Below, piece by piece: positions 7,332-64,000 of a stretch of 64,000 bases of DNA. The translations under genes were made by a program, and so were the position numbers. The notes beneath the pieces are model-generated. The model had not been told where the DNA came from. It did not search any database and saw nothing but the letters and a program-made list of their open reading frames with translations. The stretch lies in NCBI GenBank assembly GCA_041658985.1, contig JBAZZC010000001.1, forward strand, positions 1,813 to 65,812, in the 5' to 3' direction. This DNA comes from Minisyncoccota bacterium. Its GTDB lineage: Bacteria; Patescibacteriota; Minisyncoccia; Phycocordibacterales; DATDWN01. Each line of letters starts with the position of its first letter. Within the stretch, counting starts at the first letter, position 1.

Positions 7332-7473
7332 TTAATTTATCCGCACACCAATTTTGGCATTGTGTTTTTGTTGCTTATTAAATATTTATCACAAAATATT
7401 ATTCTGATACTTTATAAATCAAATCATCATTTGTGAAAACACGATGCAACGATGCCAAATTTGGTGTTCGGAT
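7329..7473. repeat. family-1 inverted-repeat element copy 1 (TIR ATCCGCACACcaattttggcattg / caatgccaaatttggtgttcGGAT)
   Basis: 24-bp terminal inverted repeats enclosing about 95 bp AT-rich core; same ends at 6 other loci. Confidence 0.75.
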
Positions 7474-9768: not shown

Positions 9769-9905
9769 ATCCGAACACTAACTCTGGCATTGTCTCTGTG
9801 TTGCTATTCGGATAATAAAATAAATTATAGTAAGCTTGTCTAATTTACAAGTTAAGGTATAAATCGTGAGAGACGATGCAACGATGCCAGAGTTAGTGTG
9901 CGGAT
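9769..9905. repeat. family-1 inverted-repeat element copy 2
   Basis: ATCCGAACACtaactctggcattg ... caacgatgccagagttagtGTGTGCGGAT. Confidence 0.75.
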
Positions 9906-9967
9906 AAATAAACAGCGAACCGTGGAGCGAGAAGTCGCCCCACGGTGTAGTCGAAAGGTACAATGCC

Positions 9968-10654
9968 CTAGGGAGAGATGACTTCGAACGTGTCATCCCC
10001 CACACTCTTCACGTAGAGAGCGTTCGCCTCGGCTAGAAGCCGAGCGATGACCGGTGGGTGGTGAGCCATGTACACGTAACCCACTGGAGCACTCATGATG
10101 CACGAGCCAGTTCCTGGTGGTCTGTACAAACTCATGTCAATCGTCCCTTGCTGGCGAACGACTTGTAGAACCTTGTCCGCCCCGAAGCAGATTTGGTCCT
10201 GCGGGATAAGTCGTCGGCTTTCACCGACAACCGTCTCGAGAACGAAGCGCCGATGCGTCGGCCCCTCATCCTTGGGAACTGGAGTGTATCCGCAGGACAT
10301 CGCGAGCATCTCCGCGAAGTCGCCCACCTCAGACCACGACCTGAGATATGGGGCGTAGAGACATCTCCCGCCGGCATCTCGCAACCACCCAGCTGGGGTC
10401 CATTTCAACAGGGCTTTGCCACGATACGCCGCCACACGAACCCCGTTGAGACAGGGTCCATCATCAATCATCCAATCAATGAGTAGGTAGTCCCTTTCAC
10501 GAAGACCACCATTCATTATCTTGAATGAGTCAGGCTTTTCTGGACCTCTTCCAGCTCTGATTCTTTCAATCTCTTCCCTTGTAAAATGGGTCGTTTCGGG
10601 ATAAACCTTGGGTTTTTGGTTCCAGTCCCTTTTCGGCTTTGGCCATTTTCCCAT
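9968..10654 (-). CDS. GC-rich orphan protein A (unknown function)
   Basis: about 55% GC coding with AGGAGG SD 8 nt upstream of ATG at 10654; hairpin terminator 9918-9962; inserted between secY and adk. Confidence 0.6.
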   Translation of the reverse strand: MGKWPKPKRDWNQKPKVYPETTHFTREEIERIRAGRGPEKPDSFKIMNGGLRERDYLLIDWMIDDGPCLNGVRVAAYRGKALLKWTPAGWLRDAGGRCLYAPYLRSWSEVGDFAEMLAMSCGYTPVPKDEGPTHRRFVLETVVGESRRLIPQDQICFGADKVLQVVRQQGTIDMSLYRPPGTGSCIMSAPVGYVYMAHHPPVIARLLAEANALYVKSVGDDTFEVISP

Positions 10655-10759
10655 GGGTTTTCCTCCTTTCCTTGGGAATCCAATCAAAAACTACCACAAG
10701 ATGTGGCTGTATGTCAATAGATTATATTAAATTTAAAAATCAAAATATTTAAACCACTA

Positions 10760-10877
10760 AAAACTTTCAAATTTGGATGAAATTCGACGTGAGAAATTAA
10801 AAAGATGAGGAGCCTTACTTAGTGGTAAGGTGATGAATATTTTTAATTTGGGAACGAGGATTTCGCCAAATTTGGAA
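10760..10877. repeat. family-2 structured palindromic element copy a
   Basis: aaactttcaaatttgg...gagCCTTACttagtgGTAAGGtga...cgccaaatttgg; three nested helices. Confidence 0.7.
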
Positions 10878-10880
10878 GTT

Positions 10881-12152
10881 TTAATATTCCCTAATAGAAA
10901 CCTGTGCATCAATCTTCTTAATCAAATCAATAACTACAGAAACTACGATGAGAAGTGACGTTCCACCAATAGATATCGCTGTGATACCAGTAAGACCGCT
11001 CATGGCCAAAGGAAGAACAGCAATAAAACCCAAAAAGAGTGCCCCAATTAGAGTTAGCCGAGTTAATATTCTCGAGATATGGTCCGATGTTGATTTGCCA
11101 GGTCTTACCCCTGGAATAAATGCTCCGTTTTTTTGAAGATTTGTTGATATTTGGTCTGGGTCAAATGTAACGGCAGTATAAAAATAAGTAAACACAAATA
11201 CCAAAAAGAAATATGCTCCGGCATAAAACCAGCCATTCGCCAAAATATCCAACAAAAAGGTTGACACTGATTGTACTAAGGCGTTACTAGCACCCTGCAA
11301 AAATCTTAGTATCATTTGTGGAAATAGAAGTATTGAAAGGGCAAAGATAATTGGAATAACCCCCGCTTGATTTATTCTAAGTGGTAAATATGTTGATGTT
11401 CCCCCATAAACTTTATTTCCTCGAACTTGTTTTGCATAGGTTACTGGTATTGGTCTTTCCGCTTCGGTGATAATAACCACACCAACAATAACAAGAGCTG
11501 ATATGACAAGAAAGACTAAGTAAAGTGGTAATTGTGAAGCCTCAAAAGAAAAAACCAGTTGACCGATTGTTGCCGGCAAAGATGCAACAATACCAGCAAA
11601 GATGATAAGTGAGACACCATTGCCAATACCATATTCAGAAATAAGTTCACCGACCCACATCAAAAGTACCGACCCAGCTGTTATAACCAAAAGATTCGTA
11701 ACTAATTCAAGGGAAGTAAGATGGGCTAAGATTTGCTGATTTTCTAAGAGTTTTATAAAACTGAAAGCTTGAATAATAGCAAGTGGAATAGAAAGTATTC
11801 TGCTGTACTGAGCAAACTTTCGTCTACCAGCTTCTCCTTCTTCCTGATACATTTCCTTTAATTTGGGAAACATAATAGTTAGAAGTTGCATAATAATTGA
11901 TGATGTGATGTACGGACCAACACCAAGCATCACAATAGAAAGTTGGGCCAACCCACCGCCAGAGAAAAGATTGAGAAGCCCAAAGAATTCATTGCCAGCA
12001 AAAAACTGAGCTAATTTAACATGGTCAACTCCAGCAATAGGGACAGCAGCAAAAACACGAAACAAGACAAGTGCAGAAAGTGTAAAGAATATTCTTTTTC
12101 GTAATATTCTGTCTTGAAAGATAAGGGTGAATTTATTAAAAAGGTCTTTCAT
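10881..12152 (-). CDS. secY: preprotein translocase subunit SecY
   Basis: 10-TM protein with SecY signature regions; follows rplO. Confidence 0.9.
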   Translation of the reverse strand: MKDLFNKFTLIFQDRILRKRIFFTLSALVLFRVFAAVPIAGVDHVKLAQFFAGNEFFGLLNLFSGGGLAQLSIVMLGVGPYITSSIIMQLLTIMFPKLKEMYQEEGEAGRRKFAQYSRILSIPLAIIQAFSFIKLLENQQILAHLTSLELVTNLLVITAGSVLLMWVGELISEYGIGNGVSLIIFAGIVASLPATIGQLVFSFEASQLPLYLVFLVISALVIVGVVIITEAERPIPVTYAKQVRGNKVYGGTSTYLPLRINQAGVIPIIFALSILLFPQMILRFLQGASNALVQSVSTFLLDILANGWFYAGAYFFLVFVFTYFYTAVTFDPDQISTNLQKNGAFIPGVRPGKSTSDHISRILTRLTLIGALFLGFIAVLPLAMSGLTGITAISIGGTSLLIVVSVVIDLIKKIDAQVSIREY

Positions 12153-19103: not shown

Positions 19104-19628
19104 CTACTGCGGGAGCTGGAGCCCCTTCACCTTGGCCGGATCGAGCTTGCTGCCACCCTTCGGGAAGATAACCCCAGCGCCGAGGAAGGGCATGGTGAAC
19201 ATGATCCTTCCATCACCAATGTCCTGCGGGGAAACCTCCGTGGGGTTGATGTAGAACGGGAAGATCTGCCACTTTTCCCATTCCGATCCCGGAACCAGCC
19301 GAGCGACCCACGGGGACTCGAAGAAGATCAGGCCATCACGAAGTTCGATCTTCGAGATCGGCCCTCGGTAGTACGTCCCATCCTCTTGAGTTTCGAGGTC
19401 GCCTCCGACGATGTCATCCCTCCGTAACACGTCTTCCCAGGTCATGTGAACCTCCCATCTGGCAAAATTGCCACCAGACAACACCTTACATCTTTTTACA
19501 AAAGTGTCAACGTCTTTGCTTGGTAAAAAATATCTTCGAGAAACATCCGCAGGCGCTGAGCTTGGTGTTGTCATAGACCCCGAGCTTTGCGAGGGGCTCT
19601 TGACAACGAAGCGCCGAGGACCGAACAA
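19104..19628 (-). CDS. GC-rich orphan protein B (unknown function; probable true start 19445 with GGAGG SD)
   Basis: GC-rich open frame between rplB and rpsS; GC hairpin 19050-19085 downstream; N-terminal 60 codons are AT-rich and bracketed by 26-bp inverted repeats. Confidence 0.5.
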   Translation of the reverse strand: MFGPRRFVVKSPSQSSGSMTTPSSAPADVSRRYFLPSKDVDTFVKRCKVLSGGNFARWEVHMTWEDVLRRDDIVGGDLETQEDGTYYRGPISKIELRDGLIFFESPWVARLVPGSEWEKWQIFPFYINPTEVSPQDIGDGRIMFTMPFLGAGVIFPKGGSKLDPAKVKGLQLPQ

Positions 19629-22246: not shown

Positions 22247-22470
22247 ATTTTTATTTTATATTTGGAGACGTTTTGCGGACAGTAATGAGAAAAGGTTTTC
22301 CTCAACATTGCCCTTCGCTAGCCCCCATGAAAAAGTCGCTTAAAGCGATTTGGCTATGGTAACAGATATCAATTTTTTAATCAAGTCGCTCTGGCCTTTT
22401 TGTTTAATATTTTATACAGAAAGGACCTCACGACGAGCGGGGGCCGAGAGGCCCTTCCTTTGTCGTGAGG

Positions 22471-22746
22471 TCACTGGTTGTCGAACTCCGTCGACTCGCG
22501 ACCCAAACCAAGTTGAACAGTCTCGGCGCAGGCCGACAACCTCTCAACCTGGAATCCAGTGTCAATCAACACTAAGATCTTGGTGATTTCAGCTGCCGGA
22601 ACACCTGTTCTCTCAGCGAATCCGTCAATATCCTTCGTGACGGCTTGCATGAGACCAGGGGTCTGCCGAAACAATTGCTTCAGCAGTTTGTAGCTTACTA
22701 TAGTTGAGTCCATCGATATCTCCCTCCAAAACAAATGGTATCCCAA
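22471..22746 (-). CDS. GC-rich orphan protein C1 (91 aa, unknown)
   Basis: GC-rich ORF with GGAGGGA SD; terminator-like hairpin module 22405-22465 immediately downstream. Confidence 0.5.
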   Translation of the reverse strand: MGYHLFWREISMDSTIVSYKLLKQLFRQTPGLMQAVTKDIDGFAERTGVPAAEITKILVLIDTGFQVERLSACAETVQLGLGRESTEFDNQ

Positions 22747-22879
22747 ATTATATAAATGTCAACGTAAACAAAAAACCGCTAAGATTAAGGGTGACTTATT
22801 ATACAGAAAAGACCTCGCGACAGACGAGAGGCGCAAGGCCCTTCCGTTGTGCGAGGTCGTGTGTCAGCGAGTGGAGAAG

Positions 22880-23344
22880 CTACTTCTGCAACACTCCAGC
22901 GACATAAACTCTCGGGGGTGGCCAGCCACCCTTTGTACATCGTGTGATGATTAGCTTGTCGAAGTGCCCACCATTCGGGCCATCAACAAACTCCACCCAC
23001 CCCTGGCAGAACATGGCTGTTGTCGGTTCGTACAACTGCACCTTCGCCCCTGACTTGGAAAGGTCGGCGAAGGCATTGAGTCTGAAATCGTCCTTGTCGA
23101 CTTCACTTCCTTGCCGGTGAGGAATCGCCTTATTCAGACGATCCCTCAGCTCGTTCTCGACCCTCGTCACCTCAGCGCGACGCTGGTTTTGCCGCTCGAT
23201 GGCCCCCTTTTTCAAATGAGACAACGACATGGTCCCGACCAACAGCAAAATACCCACAATCACGTAGGAGAGAAACGTACACGAAGCTTTTCCGAACATA
23301 CCCCCTCCAATCCAGATGGTCAGTACTTGACCATACCCTTTCAT
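22880..23344 (-). CDS. GC-rich orphan membrane-anchored protein C2 (start 23344 or 23299)
   Basis: GC-rich ORF with N-terminal TM helix; TTGACA-17-TATAAT promoter ends right at the upstream ATG; paralogous hairpin module 22800-22860 downstream. Confidence 0.5.
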   Translation of the reverse strand: MKGYGQVLTIWIGGGMFGKASCTFLSYVIVGILLLVGTMSLSHLKKGAIERQNQRRAEVTRVENELRDRLNKAIPHRQGSEVDKDDFRLNAFADLSKSGAKVQLYEPTTAMFCQGWVEFVDGPNGGHFDKLIITRCTKGGWPPPRVYVAGVLQK

Positions 23345-23884: not shown

Positions 23885-24004
23885 AATTTCATAATCTGGA
23901 TGCAGTTCTAGGCGGAAAGTGAAAAAGAATTCGAGCCTGCCTGAGTGCGCAGGTGAGAATAATTTTTTGCTTTCCAACAACGAAATGCGCCAGATTTGGA
24001 ATTT
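23885..24004. repeat. family-2 structured palindromic element copy d
   Basis: aatctggatgcagttctaggcgga...gagCCTGCctgagtgcGCAGGtga...cgaaatgcgccagatttgg. Confidence 0.75.
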
Positions 24005-35559: not shown

Positions 35560-35865
35560 CTTGTTTGTATAAACGAAATGGCCCGCCTCCGAAGAGAACG
35601 AGCCTTTGCCCCCGAGTTATTTTTATGTCTCGGTGGGAGGAGCGGAGGAGAGGGGGTGTGGCCAACCAGTTGATTGATTCGCTGTTGTCGCAAGTCGCTG
35701 AACGCCATTGTCGCCGATTGCAAATCTTCGCAACCGGCGAACTTCGCCAGACGCCGATGTCGCAGATCGCTAAACGCCAATTTCGCAAGATGTCGCAAGC
35801 CGCCAGACGCCGTTGTCGCAACGCCAGACCCCTCTCTCCAACAGAAAGCCTATCACACTAGCCGT
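35560..35865. repeat. GC-rich degenerate tandem-repeat region upstream of rpsL (recurring TTGCGACA / GGCGTCTGGCG units); open in all frames
   Basis: 55-60% GC low-complexity block in AT-rich context; 4 spurious overlapping ORFs on both strands. Confidence 0.5.
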
Positions 35866-35978
35866 ATAATGTCAAGCAATTTTTGTATATGAAAAATAGC
35901 CTTACTCTAGGCCTTTATTTAAATTTTACTTACATAAATATGGAGATTACTGTACGAAAAAGATAAATACTAATTTCA

Positions 35979-41044: not shown

Positions 41045-41150
41045 GTCGTACATTGAAGAGAGACTAGTGAGGCTGTCGAGCCGAACTCAAGCAAAATTCT
41101 AGCAAGAATTTATGCGTGTCTCTCAGAAATGTACGACGAAAAAAGAGATT
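41045..41150. repeat. type-B inverted-repeat element (copy 1)
   Basis: about 105 bp with 17-bp arms gtacattgaagagagac/gtctctcagaaatgtac; inverted copy at 49530-49640 (about 85% identity). Confidence 0.6.
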
Positions 41151-48290: not shown

Positions 48291-49507
48291 CTATTTAATA
48301 CTGTCTCCTATTGAATATATAGGACTAATAATCGAGATAGCAAAAATTCCAACCGCCACACCTATAAAAACCATCAGCACCGGTTCAATAACCGACGACA
48401 TATCTTTGGTTTTTTGGTCTATTTCTTCTTCATAAAACAAAGCAACGTTTAAAAGCATATCCCCCGTCTTACCTGTTTCCTCACCCACTGAAACCATTTC
48501 GGAAACAAAGATTGGATAAAGGTCGTGATGTGCAGAAAAAACCGATGACATTGTCGTGCCTTTTTGAACTGAAATCTGAATTTCATTTAAAACTTCTTTG
48601 TAGTATGAATTCTGCAACACATCTTTCGTTACCCCAGAGGCCACAACAATATCTACCCCAGAGGAAAGCAATGATGATAGAGTTCTAGCTGTGCGAGCGG
48701 CATTAATCTGTCTGGTAACACCACCAATTATTGGTAACTTTAACAAAACAAAATCTAGAAATCTTTGACCTCTCTTTGTTCTAATTGCAAAAATAAAAGC
48801 CAAGACTAACAAAATAAAACCAAATAAAACAAAAATAAAGTATGAAACAAGAAAATTGCTTGTACCAATAATCATCCGTGTAGAAAAGGGAAGGTCCAAA
48901 CCCAACCCTGTAAATGTGGCGGTAAGAGTCGGCACCATATAAATCATCATGAGCACACCAATCGCTACCATTAAAACAAGGATAATAACTGGGTACATTA
49001 AAGCCCCCCTTATTTTTCTGTTTAACTGATAAGTTTTTTCCATCTGCAAAGCGACATTTTGTAAAGCAGAGGAGAGATTTCCAGATTCCTCCCCCGCTCT
49101 AACCATAGAGGTAAAAAGTGAAGAGAATACTTTTGGGTAAGCTTTCATAGAATCACTAAGTGTGGTTCCACGACTTAAGGATGCGTTAAATCGTTTAAAA
49201 CTTTTTTGAAAAGATTTTTTGCTTCTCTTTCCATTATTGAAAGAGCTCTAGTTATGGGCAACCCAGCATCTATCATTTTCGATAAATTTCTAGCAAAAAT
49301 AATTTTGTCGTGTGTTTTGATGTTATCAAGAAATGGCAAAAAATTTGAAATATTAAATGTTGATTTATTTTGTGCTTCTTCGGCAAAGACAACTGAGTTA
49401 CCGTCAGTTTTAATTAAGTGGTACAAAGCAAATTTATCTTTTGCTTCCATTGTCCCTTCAGTTTGCTTACCTTCTTTATTTACTGTTTTGTAATGAAATA
49501 GTGGCAT
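48291..49507 (-). pseudogene. pilC: pilC (GspF-family platform protein) split by stop and +1 frame change near 49148-49177
   Basis: N-terminal GspF part 49175-49507 and C-terminal T2SSF repeats 48291-49148 in different frames. Confidence 0.55.
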
Positions 49508-49529: not shown

Positions 49530-49640
49530 CTTTCTCGTCATATCTCTCAGAGAGACACGCATAAATTTTTGCTAAAATTTTGCTTGAGTTCGCACCGTCG
49601 TGCTCACTAGTCTCTCTTCGAGATATGAGTCAACGAATTT
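49530..49640. repeat. type-B inverted-repeat element (copy 2, inverted)
   Basis: reverse complement matches 41045-41150. Confidence 0.6.
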
Positions 49641-49736
49641 TTCAAGTCATACTTTATATAATTGTATCAAAAATAAATTTTATTTACATAGAACTTGTGT
49701 ATAAAAACTTTTATAAACATAAAGCCCCTCACCAAT

Positions 49737-49765
49737 TTGCCAAATTGGTGAGGGACTAAGTGTTA
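49737..49765 (-). terminator. perfect 14-bp-stem palindrome ccctcaccaatttg c caaattggtgaggg after gene D
   Basis: exact palindrome followed by T-rich tract on minus strand. Confidence 0.6.
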
Positions 49766-49787
49766 GAGAGTCAAGGGGCCATGGGGA

Positions 49788-50450
49788 CTAGGCCACCACG
49801 GGGGCGGTCAGTTGCGGGAAGACGAAGCGATGACGATCCTCGCCGTCCCAGACGTGGTCGAGCGACAGCCGGTGGGCGCGGACGTGGAGACCAAAGGGGC
49901 AGACGCGCACGCTCGCAACGAAGAACTCGTTGTCCTTCTTCACGAGGAAGAAGGTTCCGTAGCCATCCATTCTCAACCAGTCCTGGTGGGTCTCGCAGAA
50001 TGAGATGACCTGACCCTGGGTCATGACCAGATTGTCCAGAGGGACGCCGACATTGGCGTAAATGTCAACGAACTTGCCATTGCGGACGAGCTCGTGAACT
50101 TCCACGTCCGTGTTGGGGGTTGCCACTCCTTCCACGTCGAGACCGTAGTTGACGAAGTCGGGGTCGATGTAACCCCGAAACACCGTCTTGGCCTTGGCGA
50201 TAGTCCGCTTGCCCTTGCAGGCAGAGATGGTCAAAGTCTCCCCGCCCGAGACGAGACGGAGGTAGAAAGCGGACTTCTTGGTCGGCTTCACCACCTTCGG
50301 CATGATGTCGGCGTCGCCGTCGAGGTATGCCTTGATCATCCGAAGACGACCACCCGACCCAATGAGATTTACTTGTTCGGGGGTTAAGCCATCCTCTTCA
50401 AATCTGTCCGACAACCACTTCATCTGGTCAATCGTGTAGAGTAAGGACAT
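49788..50450 (-). CDS. GC-rich orphan protein D (unknown function)
   Basis: GC-rich ORF; AGAAAGGG SD then ATG at 50450; consensus promoter 50599-50627 and structured leader upstream. Confidence 0.6.
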   Translation of the reverse strand: MSLLYTIDQMKWLSDRFEEDGLTPEQVNLIGSGGRLRMIKAYLDGDADIMPKVVKPTKKSAFYLRLVSGGETLTISACKGKRTIAKAKTVFRGYIDPDFVNYGLDVEGVATPNTDVEVHELVRNGKFVDIYANVGVPLDNLVMTQGQVISFCETHQDWLRMDGYGTFFLVKKDNEFFVASVRVCPFGLHVRAHRLSLDHVWDGEDRHRFVFPQLTAPVVA

Positions 50451-50598
50451 CGTCCTACCCTTTCTGGCACATCGTGCCAATGCTGGCTCAGCGGGATGCT
50501 TTGCCACAGCAGAAAAGGTCATTGTTTTAGGGCACTTTCTGCTATGGCAAATCTTATTTTTGACTCTATAACACTTTTAAAGAACTGCTTAACTTATT

Positions 50599-50627
50599 AT
50601 ATTATACACCCCTAAACCACTTTAGTC
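50599..50627 (-). promoter_or_regulatory. consensus sigma70 promoter TTGACT-17-TATAAT for gene D with upstream A/T UP-like tract
   Basis: perfect -10, 5/6 -35, 17-bp spacer; paralogous copy upstream of gene E. Confidence 0.6.
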
Positions 50628-51056
50628 AAGGTGTGAGATTTACACAAAAACTTTCAAATTTAGGCAAAACCTGAGGCGTAAGCCTCGGTTTGCGCTCGTC
50701 GTTCCAACGGTTGAACGTGGCGAAATGTACAGAATACCATCCAAACCACCTCCCCTAGAAATTCTTTTGAAGATTTCGGGGTTGAATATAATTTCGCATC
50801 ATAATGCGTCAGTATTCTGCACCAAGTATCTTCATTTTTTTGAAGTGTCTACATAAGTCCTCCGTCTGAAACCGTGGTCGCAGACGCTCTCAACTTATCC
50901 CAACAAGTGAGGAGCGTGTAAGAATTTATTCTTACGACGTCCGAGTGCCGTCGAGACAAAGGGTACAACCCTTTATGGATACTGGATTCGGCCGCCAGAA
51001 ACCTTAATCTCCAGCAAGATTCACCTACTACCATATTTAGTATAACAAATTTTTTT

Positions 51057-51193
51057 ATCCGCACACCAACTTTGCCATCGTTTTTATGTTCTGTCTTGAT
51101 AGGTTATAAGATAAAAAAAATTATGTATAAATATTAAAATATTATTGATTTGTTTTTGTAAAAACAGAGCTATGGCAAAGTTGGTGTGCGGAT
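51057..51193. repeat. family-1 inverted-repeat element copy 5
   Basis: ATCCGCACACcaactttgccatcg...ctatggcaaagttggtGTGTGCGGAT. Confidence 0.75.
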
Positions 51194-51249
51194 ATATCAA
51201 AAAACCGGCCACAGAAACTGTGCCGGGGTGCAGGGCTGAGGTCAAAGGT

Positions 51250-51906
51250 TCAAGGAGAACCGAGACCCCAGCCCTTAGAACTTACTTGCGGACGCCAGCG
51301 AACCACCAGTAGGCGTCCCAGGCGTAGTCGTGGCGGTTTGACGTGCACGCGGCGCCCGCCGTGCCAACGGCGGAACGTGGCGAAACACCACTTGCCGTTC
51401 TCATCCTTCCAGTGCGTACCGTGAAGATGTGTGTCGGCGAAGGTGGGGTCCGCCTCGTTGACAGCAGCGACGGAGTACGGATCAGCGGGCTTGAGACCCG
51501 CAAACTCGTACTCCTTCTCCAAATCGTCGTCACTGATGACGCCGTTTTTGTAGGCCTCCGGACGAGGCTTGAAGAAAACGACCTCCGTCGGTCCGCCCGT
51601 ACCTTTCGGCATGGTCGCGACGACGCCGGCGTCAACGTACTGTTTCCGGCCCGTCGCCTTGAGCGTCGCTTCCGGAGTGCGCGTGTTGTCCACGTCGACC
51701 AGTCGAATGATGAGGTTGGCCAACGATTCGACCAGCTCGCGGAACACCGCGAACATCCTCATGCCGAGATTGTCCACCCCCAGCGCCTGCTGGGCGCCAT
51801 CCTTCGGAGTTTCCGCCTGATGCTTGCGCATGGCAGCACGGAGTTGGTCCACAACCGTGTCAATCTGTCCGTCGGTCATCGGAGATGCGGTCATGGTCTG
51901 TGCCAT
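51250..51906 (-). CDS. GC-rich orphan protein E (unknown function; 3' end/frame uncertain)
   Basis: GC-rich ORF with AAAGGA SD; promoter 52027-52055; hairpin terminator about 51200-51232 followed by family-1 element. Confidence 0.55.
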   Translation of the reverse strand: MAQTMTASPMTDGQIDTVVDQLRAAMRKHQAETPKDGAQQALGVDNLGMRMFAVFRELVESLANLIIRLVDVDNTRTPEATLKATGRKQYVDAGVVATMPKGTGGPTEVVFFKPRPEAYKNGVISDDDLEKEYEFAGLKPADPYSVAAVNEADPTFADTHLHGTHWKDENGKWCFATFRRWHGGRRVHVKPPRLRLGRLLVVRWRPQVSSKGWGLGSP

Positions 51907-52026
51907 GGCGTCATCCTTTCGTGACTAGGCAACTGTATTGTCGCCATAGTTTTTAATTTACAAGATGTTTATGAACTAAAAACTATGGCGACTTGCAAGT
52001 AAGTATCAAAGAACTTAACTTTCTGT

Positions 52027-52055
52027 ATTATACACCCTTAATCAGTTTCCGTCAA
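52027..52055 (-). promoter_or_regulatory. consensus sigma70 promoter TTGACG-17-TATAAT for gene E
   Basis: paralog of D promoter module (about 85% identity over about 100 bp). Confidence 0.6.
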
Positions 52056-52163
52056 GGCGTGACATTTGACACAAAAACTTTCAAATTTAGGCAAAACCCG
52101 AGGCGTAGGCCTCAGTTTGTGCTCGTAGGATTTTTGCTCAAGGTTGTGTATTTGGGGGCTTTC

Positions 52164-52272
52164 ATATTTGGATGCAGTTCGAGGCGGACGAAAAAAATAA
52201 CCCGAGCCTTACTTGTCGTAAGGTGAGGGCTATTTTTTAAAGTCCAACAAAGAAATGCGCCAAATATGAAAG
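52164..52272. repeat. family-2 structured palindromic element copy g
   Basis: catatttggatgcagttcgaggcgga...gagCCTTACttgtcGTAAGGtga...aatgcgccaaatatg; abuts pilB stop codon. Confidence 0.75.
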
Positions 52273-52275
52273 TCC

Positions 52276-54027
52276 CTATTCGGAGGTAGCGCGCAGTACC
52301 TCTTCTATGGTCGTAATCCCCTGCACTGCTTTAAATATACCATCTTCAAACATGGTCAGCATTCCTTCTTTTTCTGCCTGGGCCTGTATGGCATCTGACG
52401 TGCCAGATTTTAAAATAATTTCTTTAATGGTTGGGGTCATTTTTAAAATTTCATGTACTCCAACACGACCAGAATAACCATCGTCTCCCGAGACATCTTT
52501 CTTCATTCTCCAGAACGGTATTTTATCCCACGTTTCTGTCTTTCCCACGACTTTTTCGCTTCTTAGGGCTTCCAAAACTTTCGTCAAATTAACAGATTTG
52601 CCAAGTGTATCAAGTTCTCCCTTGGTCAAAATATATTTTTCTTTTTTATCTGTTAGTTTTCTCACTAACCTTTGAGCAATAATTACATTAATAGTGGAAA
52701 CAAGAAGAAACGGCTCAACTTTCATATCAATAAGCCGAGGAATGGCTCCAGCTGCGGAGTTGGTGTGAAGAGTTGAAAGGACAACATGTCCAGTAAGAGA
52801 AGCGTTGATAGCTAGAGCCGCTGTTTCGTTATCGCGAATCTCACCGACCATAATAATATCTGGGTCTTGGCGAACAAGAGTGCGCAATCCATTGGCAAAC
52901 GTCAGTCCAATTTCAGGACGAACTTGGGTTTGGTTGATTCTTTTCATTTGGTACTCAATTGGGTCTTCAACGGTAGAAATATTAACATCAGGAGTATTTA
53001 AAATATCGAGAATTGTATAAAGAGTTGTGGTTTTTCCTGAACCAGTCGGACCAGTGGTCAGAATCATCCCTGTAGTTGATTTTACTGCAGCATGGATTCT
53101 TTCTAACCCTTCACCATGAAAATGAAGTGACTCCAATGTAAATCCAGAAACATTTTCTCGCAAGAGTCTCATGACCACTTTTTCTCCATAATAAGTCGGT
53201 AAGGTCGAAACACGAAATGAAACTTTTTCGCCATCCGAATCAATTTTAAATCTTCCGTCTTGAGGAAGACGCTTTTCGTCCAACTTTAGACTTGATAATA
53301 CTTTTATACGAGCAACAATACTTGGAGCCATGTTTTTTGGTAAAATCATGGCATCGTGTAAAAGACCGTCAAGACGATATCGAACCAATAGTTCTTTTTC
53401 CTGTGGTTCAATATGAATATCGGATGCATTTTGTAAAATGGCGTGTTTTAGTAAGGTGTCAACAATACGCACAACCGGAACATCATCCGCCAGTTTTCTT
53501 AAATCTTCTTCGCTGGTTGCTGCTTCTTCTTCATCAAAAATATTTTTTATTGAGTCAGCGTCTTTTTGAATCAAGTCGCCAAATTCTGCTTTTAGTGATT
53601 TTTGATACTGCAGAATAGCACTTTTCATCGACTCAGCATCAGTTAGACGAGGAAGGATTTTTAAACCAACTTTCTTTTTAACAAAATCAATTGCAGTGAG
53701 GTCTTCTGTATCAAGCATGGCCACTTCCAAAGCTGTATCAGTCTTCTTGAAAGCAACGATATTGTGATTACGAGCAATTGGCTCCGGAATAAGAGAAAGA
53801 ACTTCAAAAGGTAGTTTTTCTTTTTTCAGGTCGACAAAAGGAATACCAAGAATGTAGGCCTGCATCCGACGAAAGTCGTCCTCTGTCATCTTTCCTTTAC
53901 TTACCAAAATTTTTCCAAGACTTCCTCCAGTTTCTTTGCTTTCTTTTTCAGCGAGCTCCAAATCACTTCGTGAGACAAGACCTGAGTCTAGGATAAACTC
54001 TTTTAATTGTGCTTCTTCAATATGCAT
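52276..54027 (-). CDS. pilB: type IV pilus assembly ATPase PilB (GspE family)
   Basis: N-terminal GSPII_E_N domain, Walker A GPTGSGKTTTLY, Asp/His boxes. Confidence 0.9.
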   Translation of the reverse strand: MHIEEAQLKEFILDSGLVSRSDLELAEKESKETGGSLGKILVSKGKMTEDDFRRMQAYILGIPFVDLKKEKLPFEVLSLIPEPIARNHNIVAFKKTDTALEVAMLDTEDLTAIDFVKKKVGLKILPRLTDAESMKSAILQYQKSLKAEFGDLIQKDADSIKNIFDEEEAATSEEDLRKLADDVPVVRIVDTLLKHAILQNASDIHIEPQEKELLVRYRLDGLLHDAMILPKNMAPSIVARIKVLSSLKLDEKRLPQDGRFKIDSDGEKVSFRVSTLPTYYGEKVVMRLLRENVSGFTLESLHFHGEGLERIHAAVKSTTGMILTTGPTGSGKTTTLYTILDILNTPDVNISTVEDPIEYQMKRINQTQVRPEIGLTFANGLRTLVRQDPDIIMVGEIRDNETAALAINASLTGHVVLSTLHTNSAAGAIPRLIDMKVEPFLLVSTINVIIAQRLVRKLTDKKEKYILTKGELDTLGKSVNLTKVLEALRSEKVVGKTETWDKIPFWRMKKDVSGDDGYSGRVGVHEILKMTPTIKEIILKSGTSDAIQAQAEKEGMLTMFEDGIFKAVQGITTIEEVLRATSE

Positions 54028-60800: not shown

Positions 60801-61259
60801 TTGGAAGAGATATTCCTTGCACTTAACCACAAGGGGGTGTCTGTGTTGTCTTGTTCTTTGCGTCCGACAACCCGATTGCGGGTAATACAATCACTCAAGC
60901 TTCTGGGTGGAATCACAAGCTCCATCTTCCCCGAAGTGGAAGCGGCTCTCCTTGGTAACCTCGATTATCAGAGAGCAATCGAGTTCATGATCCCCAACAA
61001 GACGATGGGGTGGTACAGATCAACGATGGACCTGTTGTTCTGTGAACTCCACCCGAAATACCGCGCGTCATGTCGCACGTACTATGTCAACAAGGGTCCG
61101 ATGCTGAAGGACCTCATCACGGTGGATGAGTGGGTAGAGTACAACAGTCGCCTACTCAAAGCCCTAGAGGTTGCCCACGATCTGTTCTGCGAACAGCGCC
61201 AGATGTGGTGGGGCTGGTATCGTCGGCGAGTGGAGAGAGCATTTCGGGCAACCGCCTGA
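60801..61259 (+). CDS. GC-elevated ORF of unknown function (alternatively a structured RNA; start uncertain)
   Basis: open frame with TTG/ATG candidates; terminator hairpin 61285-61320; see findings. Confidence 0.3.
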   Translation: MEEIFLALNHKGVSVLSCSLRPTTRLRVIQSLKLLGGITSSIFPEVEAALLGNLDYQRAIEFMIPNKTMGWYRSTMDLLFCELHPKYRASCRTYYVNKGPMLKDLITVDEWVEYNSRLLKALEVAHDLFCEQRQMWWGWYRRRVERAFRATA

Positions 61260-62495: not shown

Positions 62496-63266
62496 TTAAG
62501 ACTTCGGTATCTCACGTTCCCTCCATGGATGAATGATTGGGAGCGACTTTTTGCGCCTCAATCCGAGCAAATGGTCCGTTCTAGCATCAGCTGCCTGAAG
62601 GAAGATTGCGTTCGGATAAAGGAGCTCAAGGGCCTCCCCGATGAGAGCGTAGTCGGCAAGTCGCTTACGCGACGAGGGCTCAAGTTCTGCGCGACGGGTA
62701 TACCTGAACTTGGGAATGCTCAGGCGATACCGAATGTCGGCGTCCAAGGCCAGAGATTGCTTCGACTCCCCGGCCCACCTGAGTGCACTTTCGTACGAGA
62801 TACACCCGGCGGTGACCGCCTTCGGCTCAATGTCGGACCAGAAAAGAATATCGCCTGGAGGTGCTTTTCCTTCCTCCCTGGCAATTTCAATCTGAAGCCA
62901 CGCCTCTTCCCGAAGCTCGGATTGCGGTTGGAACCACCCCCACGTCCTGACCCATTCCAAATCCTGGACAAAGAGCGTGAGGGTGACTTCTTTTCCCAGG
63001 TTTTGGAGGCGCTCAATCAACCCCTCGGTTTTTTGCCGAACACTCCGACTGAAAAACCCGACCGAGGCCACATTGAGGTCTCGTCCATCTTCGGTTCCCG
63101 TTGCACAGGAAATACCGACAAGATGGACGGTGGGGGTATTTAGAGCTTCGCACAGCTCCGGAACCGAAACGATATTTTCAGTCTCGGTTTCCTCAAGAAG
63201 AGCAAAGGTGCTCGCCTCAACCCCTCGAAGCTTAGAGACTGCCTGTCTCGCATCCCGGTTAGCCAT
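62496..63266 (-). CDS. GC-rich orphan protein (256 aa, unknown)
   Basis: GC-rich ORF with AGGAGA SD; promoter TTGACA-18-TACTAT near 63500-63530 and about 230-nt structured leader. Confidence 0.5.
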   Translation of the reverse strand: MANRDARQAVSKLRGVEASTFALLEETETENIVSVPELCEALNTPTVHLVGISCATGTEDGRDLNVASVGFFSRSVRQKTEGLIERLQNLGKEVTLTLFVQDLEWVRTWGWFQPQSELREEAWLQIEIAREEGKAPPGDILFWSDIEPKAVTAGCISYESALRWAGESKQSLALDADIRYRLSIPKFRYTRRAELEPSSRKRLADYALIGEALELLYPNAIFLQAADARTDHLLGLRRKKSLPIIHPWREREIPKS

Positions 63267-63559: not shown

Positions 63560-64000
63560 CTACAAGAGTAGCAAACTGGCCACAGCGATGGCGGCAGTTT
63601 CAGTGCGGAGAATTTGAGTGCCGAGAGAGACAATTGGCATATTGTAAGATTTGAATTGAGCGATTTCTTTGTCTGAAAACCCCCCTTCTGGACCAATAAA
63701 AGCAGCAAAAGATGCCTGGTTTGTACTATTTATGTATTGTTTGAAAGAAATTCCAGTTGGATGGAAAGCTATTTTCTCTTGAGGCAACATTCCCCCCTGA
63801 AATAAATCTTGAATTGTTGTTATTTCATGAATTTCCGGAATATCACTTCTCCCCGACTGTTCTGATGCCTCAATGGTAATTTTTTGCATTCTATCTAATT
63901 TTAATTTTCTTTTTTCAGAATGTTCACAAATTATTGGAACAATGTGATTTACTCCAAGCTCTGTCGCTTTTTGAACCAGTAACTCAAAATTATCTTTTTT
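63560..64000 (-). CDS. rsmE: 16S rRNA (uracil1498-N3)-methyltransferase RsmE, 5' part beyond window end
   Basis: C-terminal IGPEGGFS...ILRTETAAIA motif; frame stays open to base 64000 (ELLVQKATELGV...). Confidence 0.7.
   Translation of the reverse strand, partial: KKDNFELLVQKATELGVNHIVPIICEHSEKRKLKLDRMQKITIEASEQSGRSDIPEIHEITTIQDLFQGGMLPQEKIAFHPTGISFKQYINSTNQASFAAFIGPEGGFSDKEIAQFKSYNMPIVSLGTQILRTETAAIAVASLLLL

Follow-up and report, generated by a model that had tools for sequence, protein, structure and literature searches.

A probable remnant of a Patescibacteria-type DGR and a second DGR target gene between pilB and pilC of a Minisyncoccota bacterium

Features of the region between pilB and pilC

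Within the 64-kb stretch of DNA that was analysed (the window), the type IV pilus genes pilB and pilC are separated by a 2.7-kb insert carrying two genes, designated D and E (Table 1). The insert had been described as splitting a pilB-pilC pair and, indeed, pilB and pilC are adjacent in a related locus, L009. The pilC gene is present as two ORFs, with a frameshift near 49150-49190. The tRNA/tmRNA scan found none. D and E are predicted to be separate transcription units, each with a sigma-70 type promoter and a terminator, in which the order would be promoter, conserved single-stranded leader of ~35 nt (AGTTCTTTGA...ACTTGC), hairpin of 16-20 bp, SD, ORF and terminator. The gene ends agree with the original prediction: a hairpin with perfect arms and a T-rich tail, then an inverted-repeat element, follows D, and hairpins, then an inverted-repeat element (51056-51194), follow E.

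Table 1. Features of the pilB-pilC insert and its flanks (window coordinates)
Feature	Position	Strand	Remarks
pilB, type IV pilus assembly ATPase	52276..54027	-	upstream flank; Pfam T2SSE E=4e-121 and MshEN
MITE-like IR element, family-1	52155..52276	.	17-nt arms; related copies elsewhere in window
E promoter module	52014..52126	-	hairpin 52100-52113; 25-mer 52074-52098; -35 52050-52055; -10 52027-52032
R1 leader hairpin, E 5' UTR	51937..51995	-	cmsearch 59.8 bits
Gene E, DGR variable protein	51282..51906	-	family typically ~206 aa; predicted C-type-lectin fold
E variable region (VR)	~51285-51385	-	3' part of gene E
GC-rich inverted repeat just after E VR	arms 51233-51243 / 51264-51274	-	read from sequence; conserved in L009
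Terminator-like hairpin after E inverted repeat	51210-51222	-	terminator scan; same arrangement in L009
MITE-like element	51056..51194	.	perfect 23-nt inverted arms; related arms at 7336, 9880, 31987, 59289
Structured non-coding RNA domain	50726..51035	-	precedes TR in intact DGRs; two alignments
Truncated TR, first ~35 nt	50690..50725	-	downstream fused to D hairpin and promoter module
E-type TR sequence			TTCGCCACGTTCAACCGTTGGAACGAC...
D promoter module	50588..50699	-	hairpin 50673-50686; 25-mer 50647-50671; -35 50624-50629; -10 50601-50606
R1 leader hairpin, D 5' UTR	50497..50554	-	cmsearch 65.6 bits; leader conserved in D-family loci L001, L003
Gene D, second, unrelated DGR variable-protein family	49788..50450	-	220 aa; predicted C-type-lectin fold
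D variable region (VR)	~49800-49925	-	
D terminator hairpin	49723..49757	-	16-pair stem; 14-bp perfect arms; T-rich tail
MITE-like IR element, type-B	49538..49628	.	19-nt arms; second copy 41055-41124
pilC (T2SSF)	48291..49507	-	downstream flank; Pfam T2SSF on both pieces; tblastn with L009 pilC

D and E represent two families of probable DGR variable proteins

Neither Pfam nor PHROGs gave a match to D, E or any of five further GC-rich ORFs, and PDB sequence-profile searches with the E family and the D family returned noise only. In structural models both proteins adopt C-type-lectin (CLec) folds that would display their variable residues. D and E each fall into a Paceibacterota (CPR) protein family of their own, 380 homologues being available for E; as both families adjoin a template repeat (TR), the accessory variability determinant gene (avd) and a reverse transcriptase (RT) in other genomes, both are probably variable proteins of diversity-generating retroelements (DGRs). 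E homologues lie next to bAvd and RVT_1 in L007 and L009, as does a D homologue in L003. The VR/TR pairs of these loci (L009, 97 nt; L007, 81 nt; L003, 117 nt) differ at TR adenines in 20/24, 20/28 and 20/24 cases, respectively, these counts being taken over slightly wider windows, with non-A differences that include the flanks and two gap positions in L007. The order in intact relatives is a target gene with a 3' VR, GC-rich inverted repeat and terminator, promoter, structured RNA of ~240 nt, TR, terminator, avd on the opposite strand, and RT. In such an intact DGR, an RT-Avd complex would copy the TR RNA into cDNA, misincorporating opposite adenines, and the cDNA would replace the VR, so that the ligand-binding face of a small protein of C-type-lectin fold is rewritten.

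The original prediction held D and E to be paralogues that arose when a gene was duplicated in tandem along with its promoter and leader; a short recurrence upstream of D would be what is left of the decayed 3' end of a third gene resembling E. Upstream modules that are 78-92% identical, the same hairpin motif in both leaders and two C-type-lectin models that both start with N-terminal helices would all suit such an origin, but the proteins themselves do not: BLASTP of D against E gives no match at E<10 and hhalign of the two family profiles a probability of 0.9%. Other genomes, moreover, have the two families at separate loci, where each family has a TR of its own, and the leader sequence past the TSS is specific to the family, within which it is conserved from genome to genome. 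The recurrence argues in the same direction, as it is identical to a TR, has AAC where the codons are variable, and is preceded by the pre-TR RNA instead of E coding sequence. A tandem duplication is therefore hardly credible. What D and E have in common (the C-type-lectin fold, the status of DGR target and the leader motif) points at most to a very distant relationship and to no local duplication.

A truncated template repeat and its RNA domain lie downstream of E

The VR of E has a constant, IMH-like 3' end, TGGTGGTTCGCTGGCGTCCGC, that is common to the TRs of the relatives. Further downstream, the RNA domain found ahead of the TR in intact DGRs is retained; its alignments contain 48 consensus pairs, with compensatory changes in 18. 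The window copy has ~78 extra nt at ~50899-50976, and a tblastn search with a spurious antisense ORF of L009 gave 81% conservation. No Rfam 15 family matched it at gathering score.

This domain is followed by the beginning of a TR: residues 50690-50724 are identical to the L009 TR at 35/35 positions, and the identity to both the L009 and the L007 TRs ends at GCGCAA. The recurrence of 24 nt upstream of the D module, which had been attributed to a decayed E-like gene end, is real and even longer (50692-50725 vs. 51352-51385, 85% over 34 nt), but it represents the 5' part of a TR. Compared with the VR of E, the TR remnant has mismatches at 7/9 adenines and at 0/27 other bases (hypergeometric probability ~4e-6 by our own arithmetic); in other words, all differences (7/7) are at A. 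Its AAC codons coincide with variable columns of the E family. Against the full L007 and L009 TRs, 18/26-27 differences of the E VR are at A, the remaining ones being flank or lineage differences and one 1-nt insertion.

This insertion lengthens the A-run at 51337-51339 by one base and shifts the E frame within the VR. The called ORF extends to 51250, without the conserved ...WWFAGVRK end; E covers 87% of its family and the conserved C-terminus sits in another frame. The frameshifts of E and pilC could be consensus errors of metagenome assembly; the one in E, however, is reproduced in two assemblies, and the identical frameshifted protein is on record from 4 sources and 2 contigs. Comparison with L009 (5700-5760) further reveals that the MITE-like element at 51056-51194 occupies the site of the TR-RNA promoter of intact relatives. 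A MITE in this promoter together with the 1-nt frameshift in the VR indicates that diversification in cis is dead; E is probably a pseudogene, and D probably either a frozen target or one that is served remotely.

The remaining DGR components are missing from the window

In the 64-kb window, tblastn searches with three RTs of homologous loci and with three Avd sequences, avd being present in those loci as well, gave no match. RVT_1 is absent from the called genes at contig positions 4315-24695 and 66288-87058 (10 kb past either window end), the search for avd and RT covering ~83 kb of one 148.7-kb contig. The ORF at the right window edge, 63560-63889, had no entry on record. Of a full-length TR including the 3' IMH* end, only positions ~1-35 are left, and no cognate D-type TR occurs in the 64-kb window. 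Of the differences between D and the foreign L003 TR, 23/42 are at A.

We consider it highly probable that the insert is the remnant of a Patescibacteria-type DGR accompanied by a second DGR target gene. E would be the target of this DGR, its VR bearing adenine-specific scars of diversification. Downstream of E, the structured RNA would survive together with 35 nt from the start of the TR, and the rest of the TR, avd and RT would have been lost, the break in the TR being fused to the hairpin-plus-promoter module that is thought to drive D. D itself would be an intact member of a different target family whose own TR is missing. We thus infer that the locus is a fossil DGR, located within a cluster of type IV pilus genes in a CPR bacterium. 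Its decay, readable base by base, offers a concrete history in place of the mistaken tandem duplication.

The locus might nevertheless be alive, if a complete DGR at another place in the genome still diversified D, and possibly E, in trans as remote targets; the truncated TR would then be an irrelevant leftover. The ORF, VR-like C-terminus, promoter and terminator of D are all intact. PMC8144416 mentions DGRs whose targets lie apart from the RT. Targets without a neighbouring RT are indeed frequent: in metagenomes, 39 E-family loci extend 2.5 kb or more past the gene; an RT and a TR 3' end adjoin 18 of these, nearly all of which also have avd, and an RT within 3 kb is missing from 21/39, several loci having a partial RT or avd. 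The D homologue of L001 also stands without adjacent avd and RT. On the other hand, the VR of E is frameshifted, RT, avd and a D-type TR were not found in the window, and no RVT_1 was found in the 20 kb beyond, which makes diversification in trans rather unlikely compared with a fossil DGR. Orphan targets and partly decayed cassettes, which amount to about half of the E-family loci, matter in any case for surveys that count DGRs by RT-VR adjacency.

The promoter modules upstream of D and E are related in sequence

The shared module that had been reported upstream of both genes is real; it measures ~112 bp, and its identity differs by segment: 92% over 61 nt (50639-50699 vs. 52066-52126) and 78% over 54 nt (50588-50641 vs. 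52014-52067), with blastn giving 91% over 76 nt. The 25-mer AAAACTTTCAAATTTAGGCAAAACC occurs in exactly two copies in the window, with 0 expected by chance. The near-consensus promoters of the original prediction are also present on the minus strand, TTGACT-17-TATAAT for D (50629..50601) and TTGACG-17-TATAAT for E (52055..52027); each matches 11/12 consensus positions and they are the two best-scoring sites of the region. The small hairpins, GAGGCGTAAGCCTC in the D module and GAGGCGTAGGCCTC in the E module, were likewise found as described. We rejected GAGGCGTAAGCCTC as a DGR cruciform because it does not follow a VR but lies beside the truncated TR and the promoter; the inverted repeat that does follow the VR is the one at 51233-51274.

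Judged from sequence, the identity of ~91% between the distal halves of the modules would be due to recent copying or gene conversion that involved nothing but non-coding DNA; only these ~76-113 nt of promoter DNA appear similar enough (91%) for a recent intragenomic copy. The distal end of the E module (ACGAGCACAA) matches 9/10 of the TR-derived bases at the D-module junction. As the E module thus contains ~10 nt that are TR-derived in the D copy, the copy probably postdates the truncation of the TR, or else the truncation used this microhomology.

The base composition of the target genes is conserved among homologues

D and E have a GC3 of ~0.75 as against ~0.3. Such genes could have been acquired recently from a phage, a plasmid or a host, or else be assembly chimeras, and the shared module could belong to a mobile element that brought them in, namely a MITE whose promoter faces outward. 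Their GC content of 58-62%, compared with 39% for the window, the MITE-like elements flanking the insert, the differing positions of E-family genes in a conserved backbone, and the recurrence of the module 16-mer AAAAACTTTCAAATTT as the arms of family-1 elements at 10759 and 14249 are all compatible with import. However, homologues that are only 54-78% identical, from several Paceibacterota genomes, have the same GC3 bias (0.75-0.85, in genomes whose GC3 is ~0.3), and a bias repeated across such diverged sequences is not that of a one-off recent import or chimera. The DGR's own avd and RT, unlike the target genes, are AT-rich. Furthermore, IMG/VR viral contigs yielded no relative of E, no PHROG matched, and the module core GCCTAAATTTGAAAGTTTTTGTG had 0 exact matches in the metagenome contigs scanned. 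Import is therefore very unlikely, and a GC3 bias that is confined to the target genes of the DGR provides a lead for DGR biology.

A covarying leader hairpin precedes genes of several target families

Both leaders fold as stems: 51940-51992 of E forms a stem of ~19 bp (z = -5.6) and 50497-50554 of D one of 16 bp (z = -2.6). The leader hairpins had been proposed to covary around a GCCATAG core, and this is borne out by a covariance model, R1, whose seed comprises nine D- and E-family leaders from different genomes. In the seed, 93.5% of cells are paired, vs. 36-49% when slid, and 11/17 pairs have changes on both sides; none of the shuffles (0/500) attained the score of the real alignment. Among 43 distinct sense-strand matches, 95.7% of cells are paired in an alignment that was fitted to the model and thereby favours pairing; these matches contain 59 G-U and 14 A-C cells, and sense scores exceed antisense scores. 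R1 occurs upstream of at least 52/80 E-family genes and also upstream of D-family genes. In the 64-kb window cmsearch returned two matches only, the leaders of D and E, and R1 is missing from the other GC-rich ORFs (near 9968, 19104, 22880 and 62496). Several unrelated families of DGR targets share R1, which is an RNA structure conserved on the sense strand. It is apparently undescribed: the 64 kb contain no Rfam 15 match at gathering level, the leader hairpin included, and the Rfam E-value search gave only sub-threshold plant miRNA-precursor matches to long hairpins.

Long stem-loops in 5' UTRs can stabilise mRNAs or act as RNase III processing sites. R1 resembles them as a sense-strand helix of 16-20 bp between TSS and SD that is kept by covariation, and differs from them in its apparent restriction to DGR-target genes and in having no Rfam family. 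We infer that the hairpin may control mRNA stability, processing or translation; its stem would be long enough for a possible RNase III substrate. An anti-SD role of the AGTTCTTTGA tract would be speculative, SD pairing being seen in the MFE fold of L011 and in none of the window leader folds. It is tempting, though doubtful, to regard R1 and the AGTTCTTTGA...ACTTGC tract as an undescribed class of cis-regulatory RNA for DGR variable-protein genes of Paceibacterota, present in at least three non-homologous families, which along with the GC3 bias would mark a special expression or handling of the targets linked to diversification. The hairpin constitutes a lead on the regulation of DGR targets, a subject on which the literature searched contained no description.

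Comparison with known DGRs and other genetic units

Patescibacteria/CPR DGRs form DGR clade 2 of Roux et al. 2021 (PMC8144416) and their "architecture B3" was described by Wu et al. 2018 (PMC5758913). The loci homologous to ours agree with them in having a target, TR, avd on the opposite strand and RT, with adenine-specific VR/TR differences and small targets without Pfam match, as reported for most CPR targets. The window locus differs in that it has kept nothing but target genes, 35 nt of TR and the RNA preceding it, with RT, avd, the 3' part of the TR and IMH* lacking, and in that two unrelated target families stand side by side. Neither a leader hairpin nor a GC3 bias of whole target genes is described in the literature searched. 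Compared with degenerate DGR cassettes, the decay would here be legible step by step, as a MITE in the TR promoter, a TR cut after 35 nt and a frameshift in the VR. With remote or orphan DGR targets it shares VR-bearing genes that have no adjacent RT.

The prototype, the DGR of Bordetella phage BPP-1 (mtd-avd-TR-brt), shares with our locus the IMH-like constant end common to VR and TR and the GC-rich inverted repeat after the VR, a feature described in PMC5758913. Here, in contrast, the element is cellular and not phage-borne and appears inactivated, avd is inverted, and the TR is preceded by a conserved structured RNA and directly followed by a terminator hairpin. A requirement of the TR for flanking RNA segments is reported in bioRxiv 10.1101/2023.10.23.563531. 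The conserved ~240-nt RNA 5' of the TR in the CPR architecture may bear on RT priming.

Phage "morons" are autonomous promoter-gene-terminator units of deviant base composition. D and E recall them as self-contained units with a strong promoter and a terminator of their own, a GC content unlike that of their neighbours and a position between operon-like cluster genes. Unlike morons, they are chromosomal, lie outside a prophage and appear to be DGR targets, with a composition bias conserved across genomes. In L007, finally, a DGR lies between the H+-PPase gene and nusA, two genes that are adjacent in the window genome; set beside the adjacent pilB and pilC of L009, this suggests that the position of the DGR is mobile relative to a conserved backbone.

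Organization of the insert between pilB and pilC

The window has a GC content of 38.7% and contains about a dozen short GC-rich islands, two of which are the minus-strand genes D and E. The original prediction regarded these as tandem paralogues splitting the pilB-pilC pair. The splitting is borne out, pilB and pilC being adjacent in L009, one of the homologous loci (L numbers) from other genomes or metagenomes. Paralogy is not: BLASTP gives no match between D and E, and profile-profile comparison of the two families yields a probability of 0.9%. The terminators and inverted-repeat (IR) elements noted after D and after E are both present, and for each of the two genes a promoter, a conserved leader hairpin and a terminator of its own can be recognized. 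All sequence features of that prediction are found, and its interpretation, namely paralogy and the reading of a repeated stretch as a gene end, is largely replaced. pilC is itself broken into two ORFs of 110 and 285 aa by a frameshift near 49150-49190; across the gap, homology to the L009 pilC resumes in another frame, and the gene is either a pseudogene or affected by an assembly indel.

Features of the insert and related elements (window positions)
Feature	Position	Strand	Remark
pilC	48291-49507		Pfam T2SSF on both ORF pieces
D	49788-50450	-	GC-rich island between pilC and pilB
Template repeat remnant	50690-50724	-	
Pre-TR region	50726-51035		directly upstream of the template repeat remnant
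E (called ORF)	51250-51906	-	GC-rich island between pilC and pilB
pilB	52276-54027		Pfam T2SSE, E=4e-121
Locus tags (148.7-kb source contig)			WCW47_01195, WCW47_01200
MITE-like elements at the insert	51056-51194, 52155-52276, 49538-49628		
MITE-like elements elsewhere	~7336, 9770-9908, 10755-10890, 14249, 23897-23992, 25311, 31987, 41055-41124, 44979, 59289		
Other GC-rich ORFs	9968-10654, 19104-19574, 22880-23344, 62496-63266	-	islands of 53-55% GC
Other GC-rich ORF	60801-61259	+	island of 53-55% GC
Further GC-rich islands	1-400, 35561-35880		53-55% GC
Terminator-like modules	22380-22470, 22790-22860		TTATACAGAAAGGACCTCACGAC...GTCGTGAGGTC

D and E as predicted targets of a diversity-generating retroelement

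Neither D nor E has a Pfam or PHROG match. Homologues (14 for D, at least 380 for E) all come from CPR-type assemblies. The E homologues in L007 and L009 are followed by bAvd on the opposite strand and RVT_1, and the D homologue in L003 shows the same arrangement. In these loci the 3' end of the gene is directly repeated in a downstream non-coding copy, over 97 nt in L009, 81 nt in L007 and 117 nt in L003, with 20 of 24, 20 of 28 and 20 of 24 differences, respectively, falling on adenines of the non-coding copy. Adenine-biased differences between variable region (VR) and template repeat (TR) are the hallmark of diversity-generating retroelements (DGRs). Alignments of both families also display alternating hypervariable columns at the C-terminus. 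D and E are accordingly both predicted DGR variable proteins, the genomic context of their homologues being decisive. The order target-TR-avd (reverse)-reverse transcriptase (RT) matches the 'B3' arrangement typical of CPR, whose DGRs form a clade of their own (PMC5758913, PMC8144416).

Members of the E family usually have about 206 aa and end in ...WWFAGVRK. The window E aligns to the family over just 87% of its length, the conserved C-terminus being encoded in a different frame that ends at 51282, owing to one extra A in the run 51337-51339 (GTCAAC to GTCAAAC, compared with the TRs of relatives). The identical frameshifted protein is on record from four sources and two contigs.

Template repeat remnant and pre-TR RNA

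The stretch of the E 3' end recurring upstream of D was recovered (34 nt at 85%), but it corresponds to a truncated TR and not to a decayed E-like gene end, since the remnant at 50690-50724 agrees with the opening of the L009 TR at 35 of 35 nt. It differs from the VR of E at seven positions, every one a TR adenine (AAC to CGC, AAC to CAC, GAC to GGC, GAG to GGG, AA to CG); 7 of 9 adenines and 0 of 27 other bases are changed (hypergeometric chance about 4e-6). The adjoining region is homologous to the approximately 240-nt pre-TR region of intact elements, whose consensus structure comprises 48 pairs, 18 with compensatory changes; the window copy keeps the structure and carries about 78 extra nt at 50899-50976. 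This structured RNA, seen directly 5' of the TR in L009 (5762-5987), L007 and L010-L017, contains an invariant GACACTTCAAAAAAATGAAG and small hairpin insertions placed differently in different genomes, and has no Rfam match.

In intact loci the pre-TR RNA is preceded by a promoter, and the TR is followed by a terminator hairpin. In the window, the promoter is broken by a MITE-like element of 139 bp with perfect 23-nt arms that occupies its position (51056-51194), and the TR ends after GCGCAA, where it is fused with the hairpin-promoter module of D. Neither RT nor Avd was found in the window by tblastn with proteins from three homologous loci, nor RVT_1 among called genes within 10 kb beyond either edge, the stretch covered, window plus flanks, being about 83 kb of a 148.7-kb contig. 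The window also lacks a D-type TR. The locus is thus very probably a decayed CPR-type DGR (E, pre-TR RNA and truncated TR) beside a second, orphan target gene, D.

Promoter modules

The similarity of the modules upstream of D and E was confirmed (92% over 61 nt and 78% over 54 nt; by blastn, 76 nt at 91%), as were the promoters TTGACT or TTGACG, 17 nt, TATAAT, each scoring 11/12 and the best in the region. A 25-mer of the module occurs exactly twice, with no occurrence expected by chance. Leader sequences after the TSS are family-specific and kept across genomes, D resembling L001 and L003, and E resembling L004. The distal part, consisting of the -35 element, the AAAACTTTCAAATTT tract and a small hairpin, is 91% alike between the two window copies, more than between genomes; recent copying or conversion therefore involved this non-coding piece alone. 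The E-side copy starts with ACGAGCACAA, a 9/10 match to the TR-derived bases of the D copy, ACGAGCGCAA. Either the E-side module was copied from the D junction after TR truncation, or this microhomology mediated the deletion. The 16-mer AAAAACTTTCAAATTT recurs as arms of IR elements dispersed elsewhere (10759 and 14249), so the module is partly made of MITE-like repeat.

Leader hairpin

Folding confirmed both leader hairpins (E, about 19 bp, z = -5.6; D, 16 bp, z = -2.6). One hairpin fits nine D- and E-family leaders from different genomes with 93.5% of cells paired, falling to 36-49% when the partners are slid; the covariation proposed earlier is upheld, 11 of 17 pairs being altered on both sides and none of 500 shuffles reaching the covariation score. 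The derived covariance model (R1) has exactly two matches across the 64 kb of the window, namely the leaders of D and E, and it also matches on the sense strand, 40-115 nt upstream, in at least 52 of 80 metagenome E-family genes. Among 43 distinct matches 95.7% of cells are paired, in an alignment biased towards pairing by its fit to the model. There are 59 G-U cells against 14 A-C cells, and scores are higher on the sense than on the antisense strand, which points to an RNA rather than a DNA structure. In one predicted fold a conserved AGTTCTTTGA tract is base-paired to the SD, a pairing that the folds of the window's leaders lack. The hairpin, which has no Rfam match, is a putative stability, processing or translation element. 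An extra match in L032 (1409-1467) precedes a third protein family (gene start near 1540) with a VR-like C-terminus, ...MRWSWLDHGWYGSRPALRV, indicating that the motif is not confined to the D and E families.

Placement of the target genes

The window genome and L007 share the backbone genes for methyltransferase, trigger factor, H+-PPase, nusA and pilB. In L007 the E-TR-avd-RT cassette sits between the H+-PPase gene and nusA, whereas in the window genome these two are adjacent and E and D follow pilB instead. Similarly, L004 carries an E gene flanked by a beta-CASP gene and rplT; the window genome has no E at this site. Among 39 E-family loci with enough flank, several of them partial, 18 adjoin an RT and 21 have none within 3 kb, so the RT module has commonly been lost or separated. 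L039, L052, L053 and L094 are partly decayed DGRs, with TR and avd without RT, or with truncated RT fragments. No E relatives were found on viral contigs. Targets of both families recur in or beside type IV pilus or pilin-like (N_methyl) clusters of different Paceibacterota genomes (L001, L003, L009 and the window).

GC3 bias and dispersed repeats

D, E and their homologues (window, L001, L003, L004, L007, L009) have GC contents of 57-63% and GC3 of 0.75-0.85, the bias extending to 480 nt upstream of the VR, compared with about 0.28-0.43 in neighbouring genes and in the DGR's own avd and RT. A single recent import does not account for the bias, since it persists between homologues just 54-78% identical. 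The DGR literature searched yielded no mention of such a bias in targets; together with the leader RNA motif, it is worth following here.

ORFs of the other GC-rich islands, including 1-400 and 35561-35880, have no Pfam match; those starting at 9968, 19104, 22880, 60801 and 62496 lack PHROG matches and resemble neither D nor E nor one another. The R1 hairpin is absent from the other GC-rich ORFs. Intergenic regions hold several families of MITE-like inverted-repeat elements, and an arm sequence of one of them is part of the promoter modules of D and E and is also found upstream of the ORF at 9968. The two similar terminator-like modules lie on either side of small GC-rich ORFs, near 22470-22720 and 22880-23344, and this pair is another repeated regulatory cassette in the window genome.
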